Positions 250 to 64,000 of a stretch of DNA of 64,000 bases are shown here, piece by piece. Under the pieces are notes generated by a model, which saw nothing but the letters and a program-made list of their open reading frames with translations, searched no databases and was not told where the DNA came from. This stretch comes from an uncultured Alphaproteobacteria bacterium (GTDB taxonomy: Bacteria > Pseudomonadota > Alphaproteobacteria > Rs-D84), in the NCBI GenBank assembly GCA_944389385.1, contig CALXMC010000004.1:77014-141013 (forward strand). The letters run 5' to 3'. How positions within the stretch are numbered: position 1 is the stretch's first letter; every line of letters begins with the position of its first letter. The translations under genes and the position numbers were made by a program.

Positions 250-1230
250 ATGAGTAAATTTGCGTCATCTGCTTTTTGGGGATTGTTTATGATGTCTGGC
301 GCGTATGCGGCATCGTTGTTGCAGCCCACCTTGTTCCCGAAAACGGCCGACGATTTAACATTCACGCAAAATGTGGCTTTGCAATCTGCGGGGTACGAAC
401 CGTGGGAATCCATATACGATCCTGAAACGGGCAGGTGTATATCCGGGTGTTTGTATCCTGGAATTACACTGGCGGACGAATTAAGGATAAATCAACAAAA
501 TACCACTGTCGCCGCACAACAGTTGATACAGTATGTGCAAAATTACCCTGAACGTTTGAATTCGGACCAGTTTAATCACATACTTAACATATTGCGGAAT
601 CAGGCGCTTTTGGACGAATATGCGGACGTGTTGGCGCAATATGTCCCGCAGATTGTTTCCGAAGAAAATCAAAATAATAATAACCAAAATACAGCAAACG
701 AATATCTGGAAATTATATCAGATTACGCAGCGAATCTGGCGGAACAGCAAAACGGGAATGCGAATTATCCCCAACCGCCAAGGCGCGAATGTTGGCCAAA
801 CAGTCAAGAAATTCCCATCGGCCAAGATTTACCATTTGGTGAACCGTTAAAGAACAAACCGCGAATATCTTCGTCGTACGGTGGACGTATTCATCCAGTT
901 ACTGGACAGCCGTCTGGTCACAATGGAATCGATTTTTCGGTACCGGTCGGCACAGATGTTTTTTCGCCTGCATCGGGCAAAGTTGCCGCAGTTTGGCAAG
1001 ATGATACATGCGGTAAAGGGCTAAGGATTAAACATTCCAACAATTATGAAACTGTTTATTGTCATTTAAGCCGCGTATTGGTTGAACAAAATGAAAACGT
1101 TCAGGCGGGCTGCGGCGTTGCAAAATCTGGCAATACAGGGCGCAGTACGGGGGCGCATCTGCATTATGCCATAAAATTCAATGGAAATTATATCAACCCA
1201 ACCAGTTGGCTGGGACGTAATCAAGACTGA
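250..1230 (+). CDS. M23 family (LytM-type) metallopeptidase, secreted
   Basis: Signal-like N-terminus (FWGLFMMSGAYAAS). C-terminal motifs HNGIDFSVPVGT and GNTGRSTGAHLHYAI are typical of peptidase M23. Confidence 0.85.
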   Translation: MSKFASSAFWGLFMMSGAYAASLLQPTLFPKTADDLTFTQNVALQSAGYEPWESIYDPETGRCISGCLYPGITLADELRINQQNTTVAAQQLIQYVQNYPERLNSDQFNHILNILRNQALLDEYADVLAQYVPQIVSEENQNNNNQNTANEYLEIISDYAANLAEQQNGNANYPQPPRRECWPNSQEIPIGQDLPFGEPLKNKPRISSSYGGRIHPVTGQPSGHNGIDFSVPVGTDVFSPASGKVAAVWQDDTCGKGLRIKHSNNYETVYCHLSRVLVEQNENVQAGCGVAKSGNTGRSTGAHLHYAIKFNGNYINPTSWLGRNQD

Positions 1231-1592
1231 TTTTTGCGAAAAGTCACACTAAAACTGCCATTATTTATCGGGGAAATGGAAACGATAAATGGTGTTAAAA
1301 TACTTTCAGACGCCCATTGTGGAAATAATTGGTGCAAAACCCCACTGGCGCCTGTGATGATTGTCGCCCGTCGCACGCCAGATGTTGCCAAATTCATGAT
1401 GTCAACCCATGCCTGTTGGACGGTATGTTGATGCAAATCCAACACAGTATGCTTTGGAATTGGTGTGGGTGCGGGCGGTACACGTTGCGACAGTTTTAAC
1501 TCGGCGCGTACCATGCGACGTGCGGCGTCGTTATCAGGCGAAAATTCACCGTCCGCCATGGCCGCAATATCTGAATCAGTTAATTTTTTCAT
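1221..1592 (-). CDS. Smr domain protein
   Basis: LDLHQHTVQQAW...RRATIITGASG matches the Smr core pattern (lDLHG...iIhGkG). Its 3' end overlaps the convergent M23 gene by 10 nt. Confidence 0.6.
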   Translation of the reverse strand: MKKLTDSDIAAMADGEFSPDNDAARRMVRAELKLSQRVPPAPTPIPKHTVLDLHQHTVQQAWVDIMNLATSGVRRATIITGASGVLHQLFPQWASESILTPFIVSISPINNGSFSVTFRKNQS

Positions 1593-1594
1593 AC

Positions 1595-2362
1595 TTAATT
1601 CGTTTTTGCCCCAGATTCAAAATCCGCCGGTTTTTTATCCAACTTTTTTGTCCATTCGTTGTCTGGAAAATTCAGACGCAACATTTCGGCATATCCGTAC
1701 GCCTGTTCAGGCAACCCAATTGCGGTATAACATTCGGTTAATCTGTATAAAGCCTCGGGCGTCATGACGGTTTCTTGGGCGGTTTGCACAACCGATTGCA
1801 GACGTGAAATTGCGCTGGGCCAATTTTTGCGTGCCATGTCGCCACGTGCGGAATACATGGCTTTGCCCGCAATATAGTTCTTCAAGATGTTAATTTTATT
1901 TTCTGCATTTTTGGCGTATTCAGATTTTGGGAATCTGTCCACCAATTGTTGGAATTGTTGTAACGCGTATGCAGACATACCCGGTTCTCGGCGAACGTCG
2001 CTGACCTGGCGATAATAACACATTCCGCGCAGATACAGCATGTACGGAACATCGCGATGTCCGGGATGAAATCGCATAAATCGGTCAATTGCCATGATTG
2101 CGCCCGCAAAATCATCGTCCATATATTGTGAATACGCCGCCATTACCAACGCGTCCGCAGCCCATTGGGATGCAGGATATTGGTTTTCAGCCTGTAAAAA
2201 CTCTGTGGCGGCGGCCTCGTATTCTTCGTCGTTGAATTCTGCGTACGCAGATTCATATATTTCAGACAATGGTCGTTCGACGATAATATCGTTATCTGTG
2301 CCGGCGCACGCGGCCAACACAGCAGTCATTCCAATTAACATAAAAAATTTTTTTGTGTGCAT
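1595..2362 (-). CDS. bamD: outer membrane protein assembly factor BamD (TPR lipoprotein)
   Basis: Lipobox LAACAG after the signal peptide. TPR-like repeats and a YfiO/BamD-like sequence run throughout. Confidence 0.75.
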   Translation of the reverse strand: MHTKKFFMLIGMTAVLAACAGTDNDIIVERPLSEIYESAYAEFNDEEYEAAATEFLQAENQYPASQWAADALVMAAYSQYMDDDFAGAIMAIDRFMRFHPGHRDVPYMLYLRGMCYYRQVSDVRREPGMSAYALQQFQQLVDRFPKSEYAKNAENKINILKNYIAGKAMYSARGDMARKNWPSAISRLQSVVQTAQETVMTPEALYRLTECYTAIGLPEQAYGYAEMLRLNFPDNEWTKKLDKKPADFESGAKTN

Positions 2363-2408
2363 ATTCCTGCCTTGATTTTATATTCCATGTGGCAGTATAA
2401 TCCAAACT

Positions 2409-3869
2409 ATGAGTCTAGGCAAACATATTTTCGGCGTAAGTGTTATGACCGGCATCAGCCGTGTTTTTGGCTTTGTTCGCGATTTGTTGGTGGCGCACGT
2501 TTTTGGGGCAGGGCGTCTGTCAGACGTGTTTTTGGCGGCGTTCAAATTGCCCAACTTGTTCCGTGATTTATTGGGCGAGGGCGCATTATCATCCATATTC
2601 ATCCCGATGTACACCGATCGGAACAAAGACGAATATTTTGCCAAAAATGTGTTTTCTTGGCTGATGGTGATTTTATTATTCATCGCCATTTTGTTCGAAA
2701 TTTTTATGCCAATCGTCGTGTGGATATTGGCGCCTGGGTTCGCGGATGATCCCGGCAAAATGCAATTAACAGTTGTGATTTCGCGCATAATGTTTTGGTA
2801 TGTGGTGTTTATATGTGCGTCTGCGTTTTTGTCGGCCATTTTGAACGCGTTTTCAAGGTTTTTACTGGTGGCGTTTATGCCTGTGTTGTTAAACGTAATG
2901 TTAATTGGTGCATTGTTATTGGCGGCGTGGTTTGCCCCGATGACGATATTATACATCATGGCGGTCACCGTTGTGTTGGCGGGAATTTTACAGTTTGCGA
3001 TTTTATGGGGACGTATACGTCGCCATCATTTTGGCCTGCGGTTGATTCGCCCGCGTTGGACGCCTGAAATTAAAAGCATGTTCAAACGGTTGGGCATTGG
3101 TATTGTGGGCAATGGGTTTTACCAGATTACGACAATTGTTGGTACATTGGTCGCCAGTTTTCAAAGTGGTGCAGTGTCGTGGCTGTATTATTCCGACCGA
3201 ATGATTCAGTTACCAAATGCGCTGATTGCTTTGGCGGTTGGTACGGTTTTAATATCGTCCATGTCGAATGCCATGGCGCAAAAGAATATGGCCAGTGTTT
3301 ATCGCCAACAAAATATTTCTATGCGGCAATCTATGATGTTGATTATGCCATGTGTTGTCGGTTTGTTTGTTTTGGCGGAACCTATTATTCAGTATTTATT
3401 TGAATACGGTGCATGGACGCATGAATCCACCCATGCAGTTGCGATGGCAATGATGATTCAAGTTTTGGTTTTGCCCGCCATGATGATAAGCCAAATTTAC
3501 AGCAAAACTCTGTACGCGTCCCAGGATGTCCGTACACCCGTCACAACCAGTATTATATCGTTGATTGTTGCGATTTTAATATATGTTGGCGCATTCCATT
3601 TTGTGGGATATTTGGCGATTCCGATTGGCGTGGTGGCCAGTGGTTATCTGAAAAATTATTTGCTGCGTCGTGCGTGTCGCAAACGTGATTTGATACGAAC
3701 CGAGTCCCGTACGCGTCGCGCAATTGCTGCGTTTGGTGCATTGGCGGCGGCATTGGGGGTGGTGCTGTGGTTTGTGCCGATTACAAATATATGGGTGCTG
3801 TTTGCCGCAATTGGTGGGTTTGCGATTGTATATTTACCGACTGCATATTTGTTGGATAAAAAAATATAG
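2409..3869 (+). CDS. murJ: lipid II flippase MurJ (MviN)
   Basis: N-terminus SRVFGFVRDLLVAHVFGAG...DVFLAAFKLPNLFRDLLGEGALSSIFIP is the canonical MurJ signature. The protein is polytopic, 486 aa. Confidence 0.9.
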   Translation: MSLGKHIFGVSVMTGISRVFGFVRDLLVAHVFGAGRLSDVFLAAFKLPNLFRDLLGEGALSSIFIPMYTDRNKDEYFAKNVFSWLMVILLFIAILFEIFMPIVVWILAPGFADDPGKMQLTVVISRIMFWYVVFICASAFLSAILNAFSRFLLVAFMPVLLNVMLIGALLLAAWFAPMTILYIMAVTVVLAGILQFAILWGRIRRHHFGLRLIRPRWTPEIKSMFKRLGIGIVGNGFYQITTIVGTLVASFQSGAVSWLYYSDRMIQLPNALIALAVGTVLISSMSNAMAQKNMASVYRQQNISMRQSMMLIMPCVVGLFVLAEPIIQYLFEYGAWTHESTHAVAMAMMIQVLVLPAMMISQIYSKTLYASQDVRTPVTTSIISLIVAILIYVGAFHFVGYLAIPIGVVASGYLKNYLLRRACRKRDLIRTESRTRRAIAAFGALAAALGVVLWFVPITNIWVLFAAIGGFAIVYLPTAYLLDKKI

Positions 3870-3940
3870 TCAAAATAAAGTTGAAAGTGGGATTTTTATA
3901 TGATAAAATCCAATCATAAAAGAATGTAAGGAGTCCCACT

Positions 3941-4852
3941 ATGAAAAAAATAATCTCTTTGGCGGCATTAACGGCTGTGTTGGCCGGCTGTACTGATTTA
4001 AGTACCACGGATACCAGCACAATGAACGGCTATGCGGCCGATGGCTTTGGCGAAGAAACGTTAATTATGAATGACGAATCGCTGAATAATACATATTTGT
4101 TGGCACCGGCACCAAAATACTATGTCGGCAGTGCGTATAAAGTCGAAGATGTTCAATACATCCCGGTCGAAGATTTAACATATAATCAAACTGGTATTGC
4201 GGGCATCGTGCCGGCTGAATTAAATGGTACGAAAACCAGCAATGGCGAAGTGTTTGATATTAACCAAATGGTCGCCACCAGTAAAACGTTGCCATTACCA
4301 ACGATTGCACGTGTGACGAATTTGGATAACGGACAATCCGTTGTTGTTCGTGTAAATAATCGCGGGCCGTTCGTAAATACACGCATTATGGATTTGTCGC
4401 CGGCCGCCGCTGCCCAGATTGGCATGAATGGCCAATCCAAGGTCCAGGTCCAAGTTTTGCCCGATGAATCGATTGCGGTTAAAAATGCAACTTTGGGTGT
4501 TTCAAACCAATTGACACCGATTCAGCAGCCTGTACAAAATGTTGAAACAACTGTCGTGACAACAACAACCGCACCGGGCACAGTTATAACAACGACTGCG
4601 CCGGCAACAACGGGTGAATACAGTGTCCAGATTGCCGCATTCTATGCTCAAGACAGCGCGGATTCATTGGCCGCCCGTATGGCGAAATATGGCAACGCGG
4701 TTGTGGTTCAAGAAGGCGATATGTACAAAGTACGCATTGTGAATCTGGACGCACCCCAGGCACGCAGTGTTATCGACGCTTTGCGCAATAACGAAGGCAT
4801 GGCGCCTGGATTGTTACGCAATGGACGTTGGATAAATGCCGACAGTATTTAA
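3941..4852 (+). CDS. rlpA: septal ring lytic transglycosylase RlpA family lipoprotein (DPBB + SPOR)
   Basis: Lipobox LAGCTD. DPBB core TSNGEVFDINQMVATSKTLPLPTIARVTNLDNGQSVVVRVNNRGPF. C-terminal SPOR-like YSVQIAAF...YKVRI. Confidence 0.8.
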   Translation: MKKIISLAALTAVLAGCTDLSTTDTSTMNGYAADGFGEETLIMNDESLNNTYLLAPAPKYYVGSAYKVEDVQYIPVEDLTYNQTGIAGIVPAELNGTKTSNGEVFDINQMVATSKTLPLPTIARVTNLDNGQSVVVRVNNRGPFVNTRIMDLSPAAAAQIGMNGQSKVQVQVLPDESIAVKNATLGVSNQLTPIQQPVQNVETTVVTTTTAPGTVITTTAPATTGEYSVQIAAFYAQDSADSLAARMAKYGNAVVVQEGDMYKVRIVNLDAPQARSVIDALRNNEGMAPGLLRNGRWINADSI

Positions 4853-4860
4853 TAAAAAAA

Positions 4861-4884
4861 CGGGGCGTCGCCCCGTTTTTTTAT
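4861..4884 (+). terminator. rho-independent terminator after rlpA
   Basis: Hairpin cggggcg-tcg-ccccg followed by a T-run. Confidence 0.7.
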
Positions 4885-4947
4885 TTGTAATATTTGATTT
4901 TGAAAAAATCCTGATATAAAATGGCAATCAGTAAAAGGAGTTAAACT

Positions 4948-5487
4948 ATGTGGGTTACGATTGCTGTTGTTGCTGTTATTTTATTATATTTTGTTATGGT
5001 GTATAACGGACTGGTTGCGCGTCAGAACCAGGTACGCGAGGCCTGGGCCACAATCGACACGCAATTAAAGCGTCGTTATGATTTAATTCCGAATTTGATT
5101 GAAACGGTGCGTGGCGCGGCCAAACACGAACGCGAAACACTGGAATCTGTAACCCGTGCGCGCGATGCGGCCATGGCGGCGAATGGTGCAAATCGCGCAG
5201 ATGCAGAAAACAAATTGACTGAAACGTTAAAAAATCTGTTTGCGATTTCTGAAAATTATCCGAATTTGCGCGCGAACGAAAACTTTTTGGAATTACAGCG
5301 CGAATTGACTGATACCGAAACAAAAATCCAGGCAGCACGTCAATTTTATAATAATGTGGTTATGGGGCTGAATACTCAAATCGAGCAATTCCCATCGAAC
5401 ATCGTTGCACGTATGTTTAATATAACCACTGAAAAGATGTTCGAAATGGATGAATCCGAAAAGAAAGCACCACGGGTGAAATTTTAA
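4948..5487 (+). CDS. lemA: LemA family protein
   Basis: N-terminal TM helix, then YNGLVARQNQVREAWATIDTQLKRRYDLIPNL, typical of LemA. Confidence 0.85.
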   Translation: MWVTIAVVAVILLYFVMVYNGLVARQNQVREAWATIDTQLKRRYDLIPNLIETVRGAAKHERETLESVTRARDAAMAANGANRADAENKLTETLKNLFAISENYPNLRANENFLELQRELTDTETKIQAARQFYNNVVMGLNTQIEQFPSNIVARMFNITTEKMFEMDESEKKAPRVKF

Positions 5488-53991: not shown

Positions 53992-55794
53992 ATGGTAAAA
54001 GTACGTGAAAAACAAACTGTGCCGGACACAATTGTCGGCGACGCACCGAATCTGCCCGAAAAAATTCGTGGCATGAACAAGCATGAAAACGACAAAAATG
54101 ACGAAAATTTGTATTTTATGGCGTTGGGTGGGCTGGAACATGTCGGCCAAAATATGTACGTTTATAAATACAAAGGCAAATATCTGGTTGTCGATTGCGG
54201 CATGGGATTTCTGGAAGAAGAAATCGGCGCAGGCGACGTTCAGTACTGTGACACAACTTGGTTGGAAAAGCGCAAGAAAGATGTTGTCGGCTTTGTTTTA
54301 ACCCACGGTCACGAAGATCACATCGGCGCGTTAAAATTTATATGGCCGAAATTCAAAAAGCCTATTTATTGTACCCGATTCCCAGCAGAGATTCTGCGTC
54401 AGACTTTCCGCGGTGTTGAAATCGATTTTAACCCAGAACAGGATATTATCGAATTCGACCACCATGGCGCCACATTGAATCTGGATCCGTTCCAAGTTGA
54501 AACTTTCCACGTGTCGCACTCGGTTCCCGAAGCCCAGATGTTAATCATCAAAACGCCTGCGGGTAAAGTGTTGCACACGGGCGACTGGACGTTTAATGAC
54601 GATAATCCAATCGAAGATCCAACCGATTATGCGCGTTTGCGTGAAATTGGATCTGACCCGAAATTGTTGGCATGTATGTGTGATTCAACATCCGCATCCA
54701 GACAAGAGTCCCAAACAACCGAAATCCAGGTTCGTGATACATTCACAGAACTGATGAAAAATGCACCTGGGCGTGTTTTGGTGACGGGATATTCGCGTTC
54801 AATCGCGCGTATGAAGATGTTTGCCGCCGCCGCGCGTGCCGCGGGTCGTGTTGCCGCGATAAAGGAACGCAGTAATCCGAATCCGGTGCCGTTTGTTGGA
54901 TTGCCTGAATTCCGTGAAATGGGGGTTGAATTCGGATATTTGGACAAAGACGAAGTGTATCTGCACAGCGAAATCAAAGATTTGCCCGCCGAAAAGCAGG
55001 CTATATTCCTGACCGGGTCCCAGGGTGAACAGTTTGCTATGCTGACGCGTTTGTGTCGCGGGCATGTAAAAGAAATGAAATTACAGCCAACCGATACTGT
55101 ATTATTCAGTTCAATTATTATCCCGGGGCGCGAACAAGACGTTTCATATCTGTATAACAAATTGGCGCGCATGGGAATTAAAACGCACACCATTTATGAT
55201 ACAGACCATCTGCACGCCAGTGGCCACGCGGGCCGTCCTGAGTATGAACGCTTTTACGACATGGTTCATCCCCAGGTTTCTGTTCCGATGCACGGCGATT
55301 ACATCAACGAAATGCTGAACGGTAAAATGGCGATGGAACGCGGTGGCGCGAAATATATGATGGTCGTGCATAACGGCGAAATGATTGCGCTGTCCGATGG
55401 CCAGGCACCATATATCGCAGAAACAATTGAAACTGGTTTTGTCGTGATGGAGGGCGAAACCGAACGCAGTACGGATGACCCTGTATATAAAACGCGTAAA
55501 AAAATCGCATCCAACGGCGCGATATTTGTGACTTTGCCGGTGGATAAACGTGGTTTCTTGAAGGGTACGCCCGAAGTTTCCAGTGTTGGTATTTTTGAAA
55601 CCGACGATACTGGATTTATGAAACGTCAAATCCAAATCGAAATCACGCGTGCGATTGACGATTTGACCAAAACCGAACGCAAAGACAAACAAAACTTGAT
55701 TCGTGCGGTTCAAATCGCATCGAACAAGGTTGTTCGCGCGTCACTGGGGGCGGACAAAAAACCGCAATACAGTGTGCATTTTGTTCAAAAATAA
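53992..55794 (+). CDS. rnj: ribonuclease J
   Basis: Metallo-beta-lactamase motif LTHGHEDHIGAL, beta-CASP region and a C-terminal domain. About 600 aa; RBS aaagga. Confidence 0.88.
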   Translation: MVKVREKQTVPDTIVGDAPNLPEKIRGMNKHENDKNDENLYFMALGGLEHVGQNMYVYKYKGKYLVVDCGMGFLEEEIGAGDVQYCDTTWLEKRKKDVVGFVLTHGHEDHIGALKFIWPKFKKPIYCTRFPAEILRQTFRGVEIDFNPEQDIIEFDHHGATLNLDPFQVETFHVSHSVPEAQMLIIKTPAGKVLHTGDWTFNDDNPIEDPTDYARLREIGSDPKLLACMCDSTSASRQESQTTEIQVRDTFTELMKNAPGRVLVTGYSRSIARMKMFAAAARAAGRVAAIKERSNPNPVPFVGLPEFREMGVEFGYLDKDEVYLHSEIKDLPAEKQAIFLTGSQGEQFAMLTRLCRGHVKEMKLQPTDTVLFSSIIIPGREQDVSYLYNKLARMGIKTHTIYDTDHLHASGHAGRPEYERFYDMVHPQVSVPMHGDYINEMLNGKMAMERGGAKYMMVVHNGEMIALSDGQAPYIAETIETGFVVMEGETERSTDDPVYKTRKKIASNGAIFVTLPVDKRGFLKGTPEVSSVGIFETDDTGFMKRQIQIEITRAIDDLTKTERKDKQNLIRAVQIASNKVVRASLGADKKPQYSVHFVQK

Positions 55795-55796
55795 AA

Positions 55797-55820
55797 ACGG
55801 GGCAAATGCCCCGTTTTTTT
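55797..55820. terminator. bidirectional terminator between rnj and alaS
   Basis: aaaaacggggc-aaat-gccccgttttttt. Confidence 0.7.
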
Positions 55821-57876
55821 ATTCTGCCAAAGTACCGACAGACATAGTTATTCTGCGAATACCGCTGCTGATGGATTTTTCTTTGTTAACACGTGCATGC
55901 AGTATTTCACCTGTGTGATATACATGTGTTCCGCCACATAATTCACAAGATATGTCGCCGGCGGTAATAACTTTGACTACATCGCCATATTTTTCGCCGA
56001 ATAATGCCATTGCACCGCGCTTTTTTGCGTCGTCGATGGACATTTCTTCGTGTGCGACAGGCATATCGTCTGCAATCCATTTATTAACCAAATCTTCGAC
56101 GGCTTGTTTTTCTTCGGCGGTCATCGCGCGACCAAACGAAAAGTCAAACCGCACAGAATCTGGCGACACTTTGGAACCGCGTTGTTCAACATCGGTATTC
56201 AATACTTGACGCAGTGCGGCCTGTAATAAATGCGTGGCGGTGTGTGCACGTGCAGTTTGCATACGTGTGTTCGTGTTGATTTTTGTTGTTACTGTATCGC
56301 CAACGGACAAACCGTTTGTCAATACGCCTTTGTGAATAACGACGTTATCGACACGTGCGGCCTCGGTCACGGTCATAACTGTTTCGCCATTACGCACGAT
56401 TTCACCGGCATCACCAACCTGGCCACCCTGGGTGCCGTAAAAGTTTGTTTTGTCCAACGCAACCTCGACTTCATCACCAGATTTTGCAGATTGCACAAAT
56501 TCGCCATTATGTAAAATCGCCAATACATTCGATTGTAAATTTTCATCTGGCGCGTATTTATATGAATCATCGGTCGCCGGCAAATCGGTTTGCGATTCCC
56601 ACAGTGTCCGTGTACCTTTGGTGTTGGCGCGACTACGTTCTTTTTGCTCGGCCATGGCGCGTTCGAAACCTGCGACATCAACGTCCATATTTTTATCGCG
56701 CAAAATCATCTGGGTTAAATCCAATGGGAAACCGTATGTGTCAAATAATTTGAACGCGATTTCACCGGGTAAAACCCCATTTTGCACACGTGGAATTTCG
56801 ACATCCAATAACTTCATTCCGTTTTGCAACAAATCCGCAAAGGCATTTTCTTCATTTTGAATAATTTCGACAACGTGTGCTTGCTCGCGCGCAAGTTCTG
56901 GATATGCGTCGCCCATTTCAGTCACCAGTGCAGGGTACAACTTTGACAGCAACGCCCCACGATGCCCCAGTATTTGCCCGTGACGCATCGCGCGCCGCAG
57001 TATGCGACGGATAACATACCCGCGGTCTGTGTTGCTGGGAATAACGCCATCTGCAATTGCGAAACCAACCGCACGCAGGTGGTCGGCGATAACTTTGAAT
57101 GACGGTGTGTTTTCATCTGTACGTTTTACACCGACAATATCCTGGGTTGCGTTCATTAAATTTGTAAACAAATCAGTGTCATAATTATCAACTTTGCCCT
57201 GTAATATTGCGGCCCAGCGTTCTAATCCTGCGCCTGTATCAACATTTTGCTTTGGCAAAGGTGTTAAATTACCGTTTGCATCACGATCGTATTGCATGAA
57301 TACATCGTTCCAGATTTCCACCCAACGATCGTCTTCGTTTTCAATATCGTCCCCAAAATCATAGAATATTTCTGTGCATGGGCCGCATGGACCTGTATCG
57401 CCCGCCGACCACCAGTTGTCTTTGTCGCCCATACGAATGGCTTCTTTACCTGCAACGCGACGCCATATTTCAGTGGATTCTTCGTCGCTTTCGTGTGTGG
57501 TTACGCGCATGCGGGCGGGATCTAATTTCAGTACATTGGTTAATAAATCCCACGACATCTCGATTGCGCCAGATTTGAAATAATCGCCAAAAGACCAATT
57601 GCCCAACATTTCAAAGAAAGTATGATGACGTCCATCAAATCCAACTTCGTCCAAATCGTTGTGTTTGCCACCTGCGCGGATACATTTTTGCACATCGGCA
57701 ACACGCGGTGCGAACGCAGGTTCAGTTCCCTGTAAAATACCCTTCCACGGAACCATGCCGGCGACTGTAAACAACAATGTCGGGTCATTTGGTATCAGCG
57801 ATGCAGACGGTACTATTTTATGTCCGTGTGATTCAAAATAATCCAAAAACACTTTGCGTATATCATTGTATTTCAT
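55819..57876 (-). CDS. alaS: alanine--tRNA ligase, short form ending after the editing domain
   Basis: MKYNDIRKVFLDYFESHGHKIVPSASLIPNDPTLLFTVAGM N-terminus. Editing-domain motifs HTATHLL and CGGTHV are present. The CDS stops about 45 aa after CGGTH (685 aa total). Confidence 0.9.
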   Translation of the reverse strand: MKYNDIRKVFLDYFESHGHKIVPSASLIPNDPTLLFTVAGMVPWKGILQGTEPAFAPRVADVQKCIRAGGKHNDLDEVGFDGRHHTFFEMLGNWSFGDYFKSGAIEMSWDLLTNVLKLDPARMRVTTHESDEESTEIWRRVAGKEAIRMGDKDNWWSAGDTGPCGPCTEIFYDFGDDIENEDDRWVEIWNDVFMQYDRDANGNLTPLPKQNVDTGAGLERWAAILQGKVDNYDTDLFTNLMNATQDIVGVKRTDENTPSFKVIADHLRAVGFAIADGVIPSNTDRGYVIRRILRRAMRHGQILGHRGALLSKLYPALVTEMGDAYPELAREQAHVVEIIQNEENAFADLLQNGMKLLDVEIPRVQNGVLPGEIAFKLFDTYGFPLDLTQMILRDKNMDVDVAGFERAMAEQKERSRANTKGTRTLWESQTDLPATDDSYKYAPDENLQSNVLAILHNGEFVQSAKSGDEVEVALDKTNFYGTQGGQVGDAGEIVRNGETVMTVTEAARVDNVVIHKGVLTNGLSVGDTVTTKINTNTRMQTARAHTATHLLQAALRQVLNTDVEQRGSKVSPDSVRFDFSFGRAMTAEEKQAVEDLVNKWIADDMPVAHEEMSIDDAKKRGAMALFGEKYGDVVKVITAGDISCELCGGTHVYHTGEILHARVNKEKSISSGIRRITMSVGTLAE

Positions 57877-59549: not shown

Positions 59550-59822
59550 ATGAACAAACAGCAATTGATCGAAGCAATCGCAAACGAAGTCGAAGTTACC
59601 AAAGCAACAGCGGCGGCATGCTTGGACGCATTCATCAACACAGTTACAAAAGTTTTGAAAAAGAAAGGCGAAGTTCGCTTGGTTGGCTTTGGCACATTCA
59701 CAACTGCTAAACGCAAAGCTACAACTGGCCGCAATCCTCAGACTGGCGCTGCGATTAAGATTCCATCTTCTACCCAGCCTAAATTTAAGCCAGGTAAAGC
59801 ATTGAAAGATGCGTTGAATTAA
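59550..59822 (+). CDS. hupB: HU family DNA-binding protein
   Basis: MNKQQLIEAIA...VRLVGFGTFTTAKRKATTGRNPQTGAAIKIPSSTQPKFKPGKALKDALN is canonical HU. RBS aaaggag. Confidence 0.92.
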   Translation: MNKQQLIEAIANEVEVTKATAAACLDAFINTVTKVLKKKGEVRLVGFGTFTTAKRKATTGRNPQTGAAIKIPSSTQPKFKPGKALKDALN

Positions 59823-59826
59823 AGAA

Positions 59827-59850
59827 ACGGGGCAACGCCCCGTTTTTTTT
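59827..59850 (+). terminator. rho-independent terminator after HU gene
   Basis: acggggc-aac-gccccgt followed by a T-run. Confidence 0.75.
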
Positions 59851-59862
59851 GTTACTCGTAAC

Positions 59863-60359
59863 TCCCTTGTCATTGCGAAGGATCGCGAAACGTTGAAAAC
59901 GTTGTCGTACGACTGTGGCAATCCAGTTATAATATGTCTGCGGGCGAATGCCCGCAGTACTTTTTTTATTTACTGGATCGCCACGCTCCGCTCCCGATGA
60001 CAAAGGGGACTAAGTGCCCAATCCCACACTTCCTTTGTCATTCCCGCGCAGGCGGGAATAAGGTCTATTAAATTCATATCGCGGATTGCGGGTGAATAAA
60101 AAATATAACGCTGAATTATTCCCAAAATTAAATAATTATTAACAACCCAAGCCCTATTCCCGCCTTCGCGGGAATGACAAGGGATTAAGTACCTAATCCT
60201 GCACTCTCTAACCACCCCGGCGGCAAGCCGCCACCCCTCCAACGGAGGGGAACTTAGTCCGTAACGGCAACATAACAAGTTCCTCATCTAGCGGAGGGAT
60301 GGCACGATACCGGGCCCCGCGAAAATGCAATTTTCGTGGGTGGTTGTGGCGGGGTGGTT
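59863..60359. repeat. mosaic of three MITE-like GC-rich palindromic repeat elements
   Basis: Element 1 (59863-60009) has ends tcccttgtcattgcga.../...gatgacaaagggga and an internal hairpin ctgcgggc-gaa-tgcccgcag. Element 2 (60031-60184) has ~33-bp inverted ends containing ATTCCC-N8-GGGAAT. Element 3 (60204-60359) has ends aaccaccccg/cggggtggtt. Confidence 0.75.
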
Positions 60360-60406
60360 TGTTATACGAAGCCTCGGCGAAGGGTGGTCTATCACGAATA
60401 ACCGAC

Positions 60407-61126
60407 CTAGCGTTGTCTGTCACAGATGTTTTCAATTGGAATTATTGCGGCGGGCGTCGGACCCATTTGCCCATTATAATGACTGGTCGTATTTTGATTA
60501 TACGGTTTGCGCGCGCCTGTAAATTCTTCGTAATAAATTTGTCCGATGCGCATATCTGGATACACCACGGTTGGATACAGTGTTTTTATTTCCAAAGTCC
60601 ATTGCCCACAAAAACCATCATCGCCACGACCCGCCGTATGATGATTTAATATAAAATTGCGTCCGACCGAAGATTTTCCGTCAATATACGGGAACAGATT
60701 GTACGTTTCAGTATATTCCACCGTATGTCCCAAATATCCAATCGCAGGTGACAAAATCACCCCATGATTTGGGATTTCCAGTTCAGTCGTTTTGTGTGAT
60801 TCTGCATCGCACGGATCCAGTAAAAATCGTGGATTACGTGGATCGTATTTTTCAGGATATTTGCGATATTCCAAATAAGCACTGTAATCCCAGAACCAAT
60901 CGCGCATAGAATACACGCGTCCCTTGTGATATTCCAGTGCGGGATACATGCCATACGGCAAAGTATTTTTATAAATCTTTAATTGTTTGCCCAGATGCAG
61001 GTCGTAACTGTTGCTGCCCAAACATTTTTCATCAAATGGCGTAATTGTTATATCGGGCTTTCCATCGGGATTATGTGGATTTTGTAATTGCATGCGTCGC
61101 AAAATTTCGGGGCCGGTCAGTTGCAT
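60407..61126 (-). CDS. dcd: dCTP deaminase family protein
   Basis: ITPFDEKCLGSNSYDLHLG and HHTAGRGDDGFCGQWTLEIKTL...RIGQIYY fit the dUTPase-fold Dcd motifs. Confidence 0.75.
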   Translation of the reverse strand: MQLTGPEILRRMQLQNPHNPDGKPDITITPFDEKCLGSNSYDLHLGKQLKIYKNTLPYGMYPALEYHKGRVYSMRDWFWDYSAYLEYRKYPEKYDPRNPRFLLDPCDAESHKTTELEIPNHGVILSPAIGYLGHTVEYTETYNLFPYIDGKSSVGRNFILNHHTAGRGDDGFCGQWTLEIKTLYPTVVYPDMRIGQIYYEEFTGARKPYNQNTTSHYNGQMGPTPAAIIPIENICDRQR

Positions 61127-61239
61127 AGTTATAAATCCTTTTATATGACTGATTCCTCTCCGACGTGGATTCTACAATACATCCATTCATTTGCAAGATT
61201 TTTATTCACTTTTGTTTTTGGTGTGCTATTGTACGGGAT

Positions 61240-62133
61240 ATGGAAAACACATACTCTGGATTTGTGGCCATTGTTGGCCCGACTAATGCGGGTAAAAGTA
61301 CCCTGATTAACCAAATTATGGGGCGCAAAGTATCCATCGTTTCGCATAAAGTGCAAACGACGCGGACTAATTTGCGTGCGGTAAAAATGGTGGATAATCG
61401 GCAGTTGATTTTTGTCGATACGCCTGGAATTTTTCGCCCGTCGCGCCGATTGGATCGGGCTATGGTGGGTGCCGCCATGGATGCGACATCTGATGCAGAT
61501 GCCATATTGTTGGTGATTGACGCACAAAAGGGCATAACCGATACAGTGCGCGGATTGGTTGAAAAAATCCGCGATCATAAAAATCTGTTTGTCGCATTGA
61601 ACAAGGTTGATGCCGTACCCAAAACCGAATTATTGCCAATAACGGCAGAAATAAATGAATTGGCGCACCCGCGTGAAATATTTATGATTTCCGCGCTGAA
61701 AAACGACGGTGTGGATGAAATGTTACGCGCGTTGGCGGCCGTTATGCCGGCCGGGCCTTATTTGTTTGAAGCGCACGATGCAACGGACGTGCCGGATAAT
61801 TTGTATTTGGCGGAATTAACGCGGGAAAAGATTTATAAATATATTCATCAGGAATTACCATATCACATAAACGTGGTGACTGAACGCGTTGATGTTGCTG
61901 ATGATGGCGTGTTGGATATATATCAAAAAATCGCTGTGCGCAGCGACGCGCATAAAAAAATTGTAATTGGACGCGCGGGTGCGCAATTAAAGAAAATTGG
62001 AACTGCCGCCCGTCATGATATTCAAGACCAATGGGGCGTGAATGCGCGCCTGCATTTATTTGTGCGCGTTGAACCAAATTGGGAAGATGTATCTGAAAAT
62101 TACGAAGACCAAGGATTGGAATTTAAGAAATAA
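61240..62133 (+). CDS. era: GTPase Era
   Basis: GFVAIVGPTNAGKSTLIN (G1), DTPG (G3), NKVD (G4) and a C-terminal KH domain. Start is the internal ATG at 61240. Confidence 0.92.
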   Translation: MENTYSGFVAIVGPTNAGKSTLINQIMGRKVSIVSHKVQTTRTNLRAVKMVDNRQLIFVDTPGIFRPSRRLDRAMVGAAMDATSDADAILLVIDAQKGITDTVRGLVEKIRDHKNLFVALNKVDAVPKTELLPITAEINELAHPREIFMISALKNDGVDEMLRALAAVMPAGPYLFEAHDATDVPDNLYLAELTREKIYKYIHQELPYHINVVTERVDVADDGVLDIYQKIAVRSDAHKKIVIGRAGAQLKKIGTAARHDIQDQWGVNARLHLFVRVEPNWEDVSENYEDQGLEFKK

Positions 62134-63722
62134 TGTTGCACACATCAGATTTTGATTTTGAATTGCCGCCTGAATTGATCGCGTCGCACCCGTTGGCCGC
62201 GCGCGATGCGTCACGTATGCTGGTGGTAATGCCGTCGCATTCTGGCACAGGGGACAATGTGGTCAGAGATACCGCAAATTATAAAACATTGCCATTTAAT
62301 CCAAAATTGTTGGAACGCGCACGTGAGTTACGTAAATCAAGCAGTTTGCCAGAAGCCTTGTTGTGGCGTGAAATCAGTGGAAAAAAATTAAATGGATTGG
62401 ATTTTGACCGTCAAAAAATAATTGGAAATTATATAGTGGATTTTTTTTGCGCGTCGCAATTTGTGGTAATAGAGATTGACGACAAATCGACACACGATAA
62501 CAAAGTTAAATATGATATAAAGCGTGATAAATATTTACATGATTTGGGATTAACGGTAATTCATATTCCTGCATCGGATGTATTGAAAAATCCACACGAC
62601 GTCTTTATCGGGCTCTCTAACCACCCCGGGCTTGACCACCCACGCGACACATCGCGCGGGGCCCGGTGTCGCCCACCCCTCCAACGGAGGGGAACTTATC
62701 CCGCGACGGAAACGCACCAAGTTCCCCTCTGCGGAGGGGTGCCGCGAAGCGGCGGGGTGGTCATGGGCGATTACGTCACGTTGTCCGATAAACATATTCG
62801 GGATTTTGTGGATTATCTGCAACCAGGCGACGTTGTGGTGTTCAATAATTCACGTGTAATTCCAGCGCGTTTTAATGCGACTGATTCACACGGTGCGTCG
62901 CACGAAATCACATTGCACACGGCGGTAAATGATAAAGTTTGGTGGGGGCTGTGCAAAAAGTTTAATAAAATCCCGTTGGGCGAAATTCTGACAATGGATG
63001 ATGGCACAACCGCGCATGTATTGGACAAAAACGACGACAGCGGATTAAAAATTGAATTTAATTGCGATAATGTTTTTGCTGTGTTGGACGCAGTGGGTAA
63101 AATGCCATTGCCGCCATATATGAAGCGCGATGCGGAAACATCTGACCGCGAACGTTATCAAACGGTATATGCGGACCCCATTGGTTCAATGGCTGCGCCC
63201 ACGGCCGGTTTGCATTTTACGCCAGAACTGATGAATGAAATCGAACGCCGTGGTGCGAAAACGGTAAAAATAACCCTGCATGTTGGTGCGGGTACTTGGA
63301 TGCCGGTAAAAACCGAAAATCTGAACGAACATAAAATGCACAGCGAATGGTGCTGTATCACCCCGGCTCAGGCCGACATAATAAACAACGCAAAACGCGT
63401 AATTGCGGTTGGAACAACGTCTATGCGCACACTGGAAAGTGCGGCAATTGACAACTGTAAATTAGCGGAATTTGCGCGATGCAAGCGCATAGTCCCAATT
63501 TGTCGCAGTACGGATATTTTTATTACACCGGGCTATAATTTTCGTGCGGTTGATGTGTTGCTGACTAATTTTCATTTGCCAAAATCAACACTGTTTATGT
63601 TGGTTTCGGCGTTCAGTGGTCTGGACGAAATGAAGACCGCATACGCGCACGCCGTGGCGGAAAAATATCGATTCTTCTCGTACGGGGATTGCTGTTTATT
63701 ATTCAAAAAAGGGGACGCATAA
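62133..63722 (+). CDS. queA: S-adenosylmethionine:tRNA ribosyltransferase-isomerase QueA carrying a ~178-aa in-frame insertion
   Basis: QueA N-terminus [26 protein letters not shown], then after the insert [17 protein letters not shown]...PLPPYM...YQTVYA...TAGLHFT...[11 protein letters not shown]...[10 protein letters not shown]...YRFFSYGD. The ORF is 529 aa, or about 351 aa without the insert. Confidence 0.85.
62229..62762 (+). mobile_element. in-frame insert in queA: DUF559 (Vsr-like endonuclease) domain + palindromic repeat element
   Basis: [60 protein letters not shown]...[16 protein letters not shown] matches the DUF559 pattern. 62613-62761 is a copy of repeat element 3 (a 17-mer and a 26-mer identical to 60204-20 and 60231-56). 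Confidence 0.75.
62613..62761. repeat. second copy of GC-rich palindromic element 3 (inside queA ORF)
   Basis: ctctctaaccaccccgg (62613-29) and ccacccctccaacggaggggaactta (62673-98) are identical to the intergenic copy. Terminal inverted ends are aaccaccccg/cggggtggt. Confidence 0.8.
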
Positions 63723-64000
63723 TGTCGTTAAAGTTTACATTATTGGCAACGGATGGTGGTGCGCGTCGTGGCGCGGTGGAAACCGCGCATGGGACTTTTC
63801 AAACGCCCGCTTTTATGGCGGTGGGCACGGCTGCCACGGTCAAGGCATTAACTATGGATATGGTTGCCGCCACGGGTACCCAGGTTATTTTGGGCAATAC
63901 ATATCATTTAATGATGCGCCCCGGTGGTGATTTGGTTGAAAAAATGGGCGGACTGCATAAATTCAGCGGTTGGCATGGACCGATATTAACCGACAGTGGC
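63722..64000 (+). CDS. tgt: queuine tRNA-ribosyltransferase (partial, continues past window)
   Basis: [43 protein letters not shown]...[11 protein letters not shown]. The start overlaps the queA stop (TAATG). Confidence 0.9.

Follow-up and report, generated by a model that had tools for sequence, protein, structure and literature searches.

The queA gene near one end of a 64,000-nucleotide stretch of DNA from an uncultured alphaproteobacterium (assembly GCA_944389385.1, contig CALXMC010000004.1, positions 77,014 to 141,013 of the forward strand; the whole stretch is referred to here as the window) raises the question of how a gene can be interrupted by an endonuclease domain and a palindromic repeat and still be read as one open frame. 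We propose that the interruption is a selfish nuclease cassette that does not splice, resides in permissive loops of its host proteins, and spreads by homing-like recombination, and we put the probability of this reading at roughly 0.65. The features of the gene, in coordinates of the window, are as follows.

62133-63722, + strand: queA, a single open frame of 529 codons plus stop that reads through the insert
62133-62228, + strand: N-terminal segment of QueA, amino acids (aa) 1-32, ending ...SRMLVV, with the beta-strand of residues 28-34 in the structural model
62223-62228, + strand: GTGGTA, the host bases next to the left junction, directly repeated (as GTGGTC) at 62757-62762
62229-62762, + strand: the insert, 534 bp or 178 codons (aa 33-210), absent from near-identical empty alleles (junctions defined against L001, L002 and L006)
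62265-62615, + strand: DUF559 / Vsr-like PD-(D/E)XK nuclease domain, aa 45-161, from Pfam, Foldseek and conservation
62763-63719, + strand: C-terminal segment of QueA, aa 211-529, starting with a residual loop, from Pfam, NCBIfam and Foldseek
Around CGTATGTTGGTGGTAAATGGG in L008 or L001: the empty queA site

A nuclease-encoding insert in the queA frame

The first-pass annotation of this DNA, made from the sequence alone, had described an in-frame 534-bp insertion in queA at 62229-62762, and its coordinates and open frame are borne out, with exact boundaries. Across this interval only the QueA frame is open, the other two containing 9 and 15 stop codons. Alignment with empty alleles (...CTG GTG GTA / AAT GGA...) shows the insert to begin immediately after GTG GTA (62228) and to finish with GTG GTC (62762); in the window GTA is followed by ATG CCG ..., and the last codons of the insert are ...GGG GTG GTC. 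The GTGGTC at 62757-62762 doubles as the canonical inner end of a repeat arm, and the GTGGTA/GTGGTC repeat can be read either as a target-site duplication or as target mimicry. Uninterrupted queA alleles are present in close relatives, with insert-free QueA proteins of 343-356 aa, in line with the approximately 351 aa calculated earlier for the window protein without its insert; their identity reaches 96% over the part of QueA that is matched, and is 94% to the window in alignment A2. The inserted segment is not a conserved domain of QueA, contains no frameshift or stop, and has strong DUF559 profile support. A QueA-specific domain was rejected as a reading of it, as close relatives lack the insert and other hosts have it.

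QueA is recognised on both sides of the insert. Queuosine_synth (Pfam, E = 2.4e-115) matches as two stretches around DUF559, as does each of two NCBIfam QueA equivalogs, NF001140 (418 bits, cut-off 324) and TIGR00113 (359 bits, cut-off 267), and Foldseek relates the QueA part of the model to 1VKY, 1YY3 and 1WDI. The ratio of nonsynonymous to synonymous substitution rates (dN/dS) between the window and L003 is 0.057 for the QueA core, and purifying selection persists on the N-terminal 32 codons, for which the proportion of nonsynonymous differences (pN) is 0.04-0.06 against relatives. These data are best explained by a window QueA that would stay functional despite the insert.

The annotation had also recognised a complete DUF559 endonuclease domain, and the Pfam family PF04480 indeed matches aa 59-157 (62307-62603) with E = 4.9e-25 and 88-90 bits, against a cut-off of 20.6, over profile positions 3-101 of 109; the insert has no other Pfam domain, apart from a sub-threshold MTES_1575 match. 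The closest solved structure is 3HRL (E = 4e-15 by sequence; Foldseek TMt 0.76, root-mean-square deviation 2.8 A), and Foldseek also relates the insert to Vsr and to the homing endonuclease I-Bth0305I (3R3P; TMt 0.63, probability 1.00). The domain has a restriction-endonuclease-like fold with conserved acidic and histidine active-site residues, D103, E114, D116, H121, K124 and D128 being conserved in at least 98% of 106 QueA-embedded copies. For this domain the window and L003 give a dN/dS of 0.058, close to the 0.057 of the QueA core, and by these rates the nuclease is kept by selection.

In an AlphaFold2 model (mean per-residue confidence, pLDDT, 67) the insert sits between the adjacent QueA beta-strands 28-34 and 215-221, with an alpha/beta domain at residues 50-165 (pLDDT 75-87) flanked by disordered linkers at 36-49 and 169-212 (pLDDT below about 35-50; below 50 for 36-49). 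The structural modelling proposed in the annotation thus yields a folded domain on disordered linkers between two neighbouring strands of QueA.

Repeat arms and limits of the cassette

The remainder of the insert consists of repeat sequences, and a related element lies upstream in the window.

62229-62264, + strand: decayed left terminal repeat arm, of which only the inner ...GTGGTCAGAGA end is recognisable, compared with the canonical ...CGGGGTGGTTAGAGA
62616-62697, + strand: right terminal repeat arm (TCTAACCACCCC ... CCACCCCTCCAACGGAGGGGAACTT), which is the left half of the palindromic element
62698-62718, + strand: central loop of the palindromic element
62719-62762, + strand: extra left-type arm (AAGTTCCCCTCTGCGGAGGGGTGCCGCGAAGCGGCGGGGTGGTC), which is the right half of the palindromic element
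60204-60359 (about), strand not assigned: second copy of the palindromic element, intergenic, with the same arms and without the nuclease gene, resembling a miniature inverted-repeat transposable element (MITE)

The left arm was judged to be decayed by comparison with intact arms, SPPLEGCPQGGVV. The palindrome at 62616-62762 is 147 bp long, has 70% GC, and folds with -94.5 kcal/mol (z = -4.95), none of 200 shuffled sequences being as stable. It has a 26-mer, CCACCCCTCCAACGGAGGGGAACTTA, and a 17-mer, CTCTCTAACCACCCCGG, in common with the intergenic copy, and both of these identities had been reported at 60204-60359 and were recovered here. Short and non-coding, with terminal inverted repeats, complementary arms and two copies of 147-156 bp in the window, the palindromic element resembles a MITE in these respects. 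The stand-alone element consists of the arms of the cassette in reversed order (right arm, loop, left arm), and the best explanation is that nuclease-less palindromic elements are derivatives of the cassette arms. The annotation had treated the nuclease and the repeat as two things; both are present, but as parts of one cassette, with the repeat arms serving as its terminal inverted repeats.

The limits of the cassette were defined with 80 metagenome loci chosen solely by DNA similarity to the DUF559 domain, which have 31-64% GC and come from rumen, gut, sediment, sludge and other habitats. DUF559 is intact and free of stop codons in all 80, and arms and intact gene co-occur across this range of GC content and habitat. 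Conserved double-hairpin inverted repeats of the form ATTCCCCTCCnnnGGAGGGGTG-hairpin-CGGGGTGGT mark both ends of the cassette, and in intact copies the DUF559 open reading frame (ORF) lies between inverted repeats of 45-50 bp. The median inverted-repeat score is 51, compared with 15 for shuffled sequences, and 72 of 77 loci score above every shuffle. Unit length is mostly 431-456 nt (about 430-460), with sharp ends that read AA(T/G)T / TCCCCTCC...GGAGGGGA / A(T/C)TT. Of 127 distinct spacers, 65% can form a second hairpin whose stem has 4 bp or more, against 7% of shuffled ones, and 38 different stems are used, so that the structure appears to be kept through compensatory change. In the copy at the second QueA insertion site of L028, for example, GTTCCCCTCCGTTGGAGGGGTGCC...CGGGGTGGTTAGA forms the left repeat and TCTAACCACCCCGG...CCACCCCTCCAACGGAGGGGAAC the right one. 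Read in frame, the arms encode recurrent peptides, SPPLEGCPQGGVV upstream and SNHPGTSCHPSNGGE downstream of DUF559.

The sequence to the left of the left arm (bases -12 to -4) is often GGTGGT, in L087-L095, L098, L129 and L143. This corresponds either to host Val-Val codons at the first QueA site or to the inner end of another arm, and may reflect a target preference or tandem arm insertion.

The translated palindrome (62616-62762) has a dN/dS of about 1.05 between the window and L003, and by this measure it evolves neutrally at the protein level. Its dS is lower than that of DUF559 and QueA, indicating constraint at the nucleotide level. In the insert lineage of the window, compared with L167 and L003, the palindrome shows local switches of reading frame (one form reads FPSAEGWPQAGVV) with the overall frame restored, consistent with selection acting on nothing more than an open frame of suitable length.

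Hosts, sites and probable recombination between filled and empty alleles

A search of 5.8 billion proteins identified more than 100 QueA clusters that carry PF04480, with lengths of 480-728 aa. DUF559 occurs in QueA at exactly two sites, patchily, in "Candidatus Enterousia" gut metagenome-assembled genomes (MAGs): site 1 follows reference residue 32 (...RMLVV), and site 2 is at about reference residues 261-270 (...TLESAA). Seven proteins have both sites occupied, and in some QueAs site 1 is occupied by nothing but a solo repeat unit of 14 residues. The annotation had assigned the window insertion to a variable loop, and this agrees with the alignments to the solved QueA structures 1YY3 and 1VKY, in which both sites fall in gaps and are therefore length-variable, indel-prone loops. 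In L028 (6001-8052) one queA has taken up three independent insertions and is still an open frame of 686 codons: sites 1 and 2 are each occupied by a DUF559, the two being of different subtypes, and a solo arm interrupts the gene at a third position (FDACLD-SPLARGVPGGTRRGVA-YEITLH). In L004 (CAVGNU010000004.1), which is labelled Bacteroides fragilis and is probably mis-binned, queA is 70% identical to that of the window and has the same site-1 cassette.

Several comparisons bear on the mobility of the cassette. On a tree of the host core, at least 32 (site 1) and at least 24 (site 2) parsimony changes of insert state are required, numbers that are rough, the tree being a simple neighbour-joining one from about 350 residues and a sample biased to insert-bearing hits. 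Copies from the two sites interleave, the nearest neighbour lying at the other site for 18 of 106; the two copies within P0009 are 88% identical, and the window copy is only 75% identical to the P0009 site-1 copy. Filled (asterisk) and empty alleles come out as near-identical sisters in trees built from dcd, era and the queA core; the groups are L165*/L008, L166*/L009, and the window* with L001, L002 and L006. Identity over the upstream 1.8 kb is 99.3% for L165/L008 and 98.6% for L166/L009. At the junction itself L008 and L165 are identical at 95 of 96 positions before the site and 146 of 150 after it, with a 12-nt loop in L008 (AAT GGG GGG GCT) and the insert plus a different 18-nt loop in L165 (ACA TGT AAC AAT GTT ACT). 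Matched flanks with a swapped loop point to a tightly bounded allele replacement rather than insertion in situ. Identities of the window to two related filled loci are as follows.

Window and L168: era 82%, queA core 82%; DUF559 90%; palindromic element 92.5%
Window and L167: era 86%, queA core 87%; DUF559 82%; palindromic element 89%

By these comparisons insert and host have discordant histories. Taken together, the data indicate that filled and empty alleles have been exchanged repeatedly by recombination at precisely this position, with occasional moves to new sites.

Residence in frame extends beyond QueA. A HMMER search with DUF559 only gave 14,612 representatives (at 50% identity) with E < 0.001, and many of the closest relatives have the domain in mid-protein. 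Pfam annotation of these relatives and of the long ORFs of the DNA sample identified as hosts QueA, HsdR, HsdS, Type ISP and Eco57I/MmeI-type enzymes, N6_N4 methylases, fumarase C, MurC, MurD and cofactor-independent phosphoglycerate mutase, and in several of these the host domain is divided into two stretches by DUF559. In type I HsdR it always lies between the HSDR_N and SWI2/SNF2 domains, and in fumarase C between two conserved motifs; at the DNA level, the same arms are seen in the loci for fumarase and MurC. Free-standing DUF559 genes, which account for 36 of the 80 loci in the DNA sample, still lie between arms. In free-standing copies (L085-L164, e.g. L126 and L131; P0132, P0134, P0137, P0143 and P0144) an ATG lies within a few bases of the inner end of the left arm (...CGGGGTGGTCATG), whereas embedded copies lack this ATG, and the G-rich arm end may thus double as a ribosome-binding site. 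Further copies of DUF559, which the annotation had proposed to seek together with the repeat across the genome, were found neither in the 64-kb window nor within 6 kb of queA in 82 loci.

Two type I R subunits, in L098 (ORF 1523-5371, aa 481-550) and in L150 (ORF 1064-5278, aa 240-307), contain an in-frame GIY-YIG domain as well as an in-frame DUF559 cassette. As GIY-YIG is another fold typical of selfish nucleases, nucleases other than DUF559 may also reside in frame without splicing.

Mechanism, alternatives and related systems

In the mechanism that we favour, a very small DUF559 gene between GC-rich double-hairpin inverted repeats would have entered QueA in frame, at a permissive beta-hairpin loop. 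As the cassette here brings neither start nor stop codon nor any splicing machinery, it would be translated as part of QueA, and no splicing is needed because it is open in the host frame and lies in loops that tolerate a tethered domain. Expression would be by the host's own transcription and translation, and the nuclease would form an independent domain on two disordered linkers, the translated repeat arms. By analogy with the Vsr-like EDxHD homing endonucleases (PMC3239194), it may cut empty alleles or its own arms, and repair from a filled allele would then copy the cassette in. The cassette would persist and spread because the filled allele replaces the empty one, a step that is probably nuclease-triggered, and would occasionally move to new sites along with its repeat arms. 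The first two of these steps, splice-free residence in frame and expression by the host, are supported by the data; cutting and copying by repair we infer from the analogy. Strong selection on the nuclease despite the decayed left arm fits homing, which needs flanking homology only, better than arm-dependent transposition, and it also fits a host benefit.

Several points weigh against a homing cassette, in addition to the roughness of the tree counts. Nuclease activity, a DNA target, and the driving of mobility by DUF559 are putative and follow from analogy. Strong purifying selection on a long-resident nuclease is unlike the classical decay cycle of homing endonucleases, and the insert could be of benefit to the host. 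Across 71 loci a search for target-site duplications gave no clear instance, only palindromic AT/AATT, which is assigned to the inverted repeat because the Enterousia variant reads AAGTT...AACTT. Within the clade of the window, insert and host divergences are of the same order, suggesting that much of the history is vertical, and the window copy, which lacks the outer hairpin of the left arm, may be immobile if arms are needed for movement. Lastly, all of the sequence data derive from metagenome assemblies.

Among the alternatives, we consider it unlikely that the mobile entity is the hairpin repeat or palindromic MITE, moved in trans, with DUF559 as its cargo. Solo arms and nuclease-less palindromic elements do insert alone, also in frame, and no PD-(D/E)XK nuclease is known to act as a sole transposase. 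However, arms are conserved and the gene is always intact across many genomes and habitats, whereas a roleless cargo would be expected to decay, which is at odds with its dN/dS of 0.058 and conserved catalytic residues; furthermore, no transposase gene adjoins any copy examined. A conventional insertion sequence or transposon was likewise rejected, DUF559 being the sole encoded domain, with no DDE, HUH, serine or tyrosine transposase, in a unit of approximately 430-460 nt.

It is improbable, too, that the nuclease-fold domain has been domesticated as a useful accessory of QueA, for example in nucleic-acid binding, defence or repair. Selection as strong as that on QueA, in a lineage with a decayed left arm, would be consistent with such a role, and Vsr-like folds are reported to serve in RNA binding in other proteins (PMC11879112). 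But the same cassette is found in FumC, MurC/D, phosphoglycerate mutase and restriction-modification proteins, in two different loops of QueA, and free-standing, the closest relatives have no insert, and the linkers are disordered and evolve neutrally.

Removal of the insert before the mature protein is made, by RNA splicing, protein splicing or ribosomal bypass, seems very improbable. The idea has some appeal in that Vsr-like EDxHD nucleases normally reside in introns or inteins (PMC3239194) and that the palindrome is a very stable hairpin. Rfam detects neither an intron nor any other RNA family in the insert, however; cmscan of 59800-64000 with group I and group II intron models included, at E up to 1, returned only a weak FtrB hit outside it. 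The annotation had found no intein signatures and this stands, Pfam giving DUF559 only, with no Hint domain; the flanks, at 12-49 aa, are also too short for one and too variable. An intein was also rejected on its junctions: inteins have conserved residues there (Cys/Ser at position 1, and His-Asn followed by Cys/Ser/Thr at the C-terminal end), whereas the insert starts with any of several residues (Q, S, M, E, V, K, R ...) and has a variable C-terminal junction. In every filled allele checked at the DNA level the neutral, indel-rich 3' segment is nevertheless in open frame, for which splicing would give no reason.

Inactivation of queA, or the separate products that had been suggested to start at internal ATGs at 62229 and 62763, is scarcely credible. 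Both ATGs are present in the window, and queA is dispensable in model bacteria. Against this, Met33 is found only in the clade of the window (8 of 60) and Met211 in 7 of 60, promoter and terminator scans are at chance level, and the N-terminal 32 QueA codons are under purifying selection. The QueA equivalog scores lie above cut-off and tgt is retained immediately downstream; a pseudogene is rejected on the dN/dS of 0.057 for the core. An assembly or binning artefact has a negligible probability, for although all data are metagenomic and the organism label of L004 is implausible, more than 100 independent clusters from differing studies and assemblers have the same junctions, with synteny and frame kept.

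The cassette can also be compared with described systems. Searches of open-access papers and bioRxiv for DUF559 in-frame insertion, palindromic homing nucleases, and Vsr with terminal inverted repeats found no description of such a cassette; one apparent DUF559 match was to DUF5591 and was discarded. The annotation knew of no description of such an insertion, and this holds for the literature searched; the insertion is not unique, given the more than 100 QueA clusters and the other hosts.

Its comparison with Rickettsia palindromic elements (RPEs) is apt as an analogy and does not amount to assignment to that family. RPEs are palindromes of about 150 bp that insert in frame in unrelated housekeeping genes and are translated where protein function tolerates them (Ogata et al. 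2000, summarised in PMC10969869), with no enzyme and no autonomous partner known (PMC10969869). The 147-bp palindrome of the window and the solo arms insert in frame in the same way, a resemblance that is functional only; here the arms bracket a conserved nuclease gene, so that a whole folded domain is added, and the host is the gut "Ca. Enterousia" and not Rickettsia.

DUF559 and I-Bth0305I belong to the same PD-(D/E)XK clade (PMC3424549), and EDxHD enzymes have N-terminal NUMOD modules and are located in group I introns, inteins or split-intein 'fractured genes' (Taylor 2011, PMC3239194; Dassa 2009, PMC2677866). The cassette shares with I-Bth0305I its fold, the conserved acidic and histidine residues, a location in conserved genes next to conserved motifs, and the coexistence of filled and empty alleles. 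It differs in its size (about 115 aa), in having no NUMOD, intron or intein and only about 12-25 residues before the domain, in its terminal inverted repeats, and in staying in the host protein. As with inteins that contain homing domains, it is a selfish in-frame insertion in conserved proteins that uses host translation signals and whose nuclease, we infer, promotes its spread; unlike them, it has no Hint domain or conserved junctions and occupies permissive loops and not active sites. With insertion in permissive, indel-prone loops, tolerance would replace splicing.

Free-standing DUF559 proteins such as E. coli YcjD-type (PRK09767) and N. gonorrhoeae NGO0050 (3HRL) belong to the same PF04480, and about half of the sampled relatives of the window domain are free-standing yet lie between the same arms; no report tying free-standing DUF559 to inverted repeats or to in-frame residence was found in the literature searched. 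MITEs and the hairpins of repetitive extragenic palindromes with their associated transposases (REP/RAYT) are similarly short, GC-rich, dispersed hairpin repeats in which non-autonomous copies have a coding partner. The partner here is a PD-(D/E)XK nuclease and not a DDE or HUH transposase, and there is no clear target-site duplication. DUF559 proteins have been reported as 14-fold enriched among predicted targets of programmed inversion (PMC9881135), a signal for which the inverted arms flanking DUF559 could be the source.

Selfish nucleases in essential genes are thought to need an intron or intein, and the cassette points to a further possibility, that of being carried as an extra domain in a permissive loop, open in the host frame. 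We regard it as selfish in-frame DNA that is apparently undescribed, and consider the chance substantial that mobile elements of this kind form a class of their own. The fuller form of that proposal, to which we would give rather less than an even chance, is that DUF559 and its double-hairpin repeats constitute an autonomous, unrecognised bacterial element of about 440 bp, with a nuclease that recognises its own hairpin arms or the empty target and thereby powers its spread, nuclease-less palindromic elements as its MITEs, and permanent, unspliced residence in conserved proteins across phyla. If so, DUF559, a very large family, would be the nuclease of a compact mobile element, giving a role to a domain of unknown function some 20 years old; in-frame palindromes of RPE type would be linked to an autonomous, enzyme-coding partner; and odd fusions such as 'MurC/very-short-patch-repair endonuclease', and perhaps the DUF559 inversion enrichment, would be explained. 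The system is small, with a 115-aa nuclease, arms of 45-50 bp and known filled/empty pairs, and the insertions provide a natural catalogue of insertion-tolerant loops in conserved enzymes.

The locus, with the gene order HU, dcd, era, queA, tgt, shows synteny with gut and rumen alphaproteobacterial MAGs named "Candidatus Enterousia" or just Alphaproteobacteria, and the window has 40% GC. In comparisons with L001, L002, L165, L166 and L168, several close relatives have a peptidase M16 gene between queA and tgt, L165 with an additional 133-aa ORF; in the window (63722-63724) and in L167, tgt follows queA directly. A second, unrelated palindromic family (...GTCATTCCCGCGCAGGCGGGAAT...) lies just upstream of the intergenic element at 59960-60200, with arms at 60031-60063 and 60152-60184 that are 91% complementary, and the weak hit to the Francisella small RNA FtrB is at 60099-60200 (30.8 bits, below the Rfam gathering score of 66). 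Three near-identical terminator-like hairpins (AAACGGGGCnnnGCCCCGTTTTTTT) are present in the window at 4845-4885, 55783-55823 and 59813-59853, one of them 3' of the HU gene.

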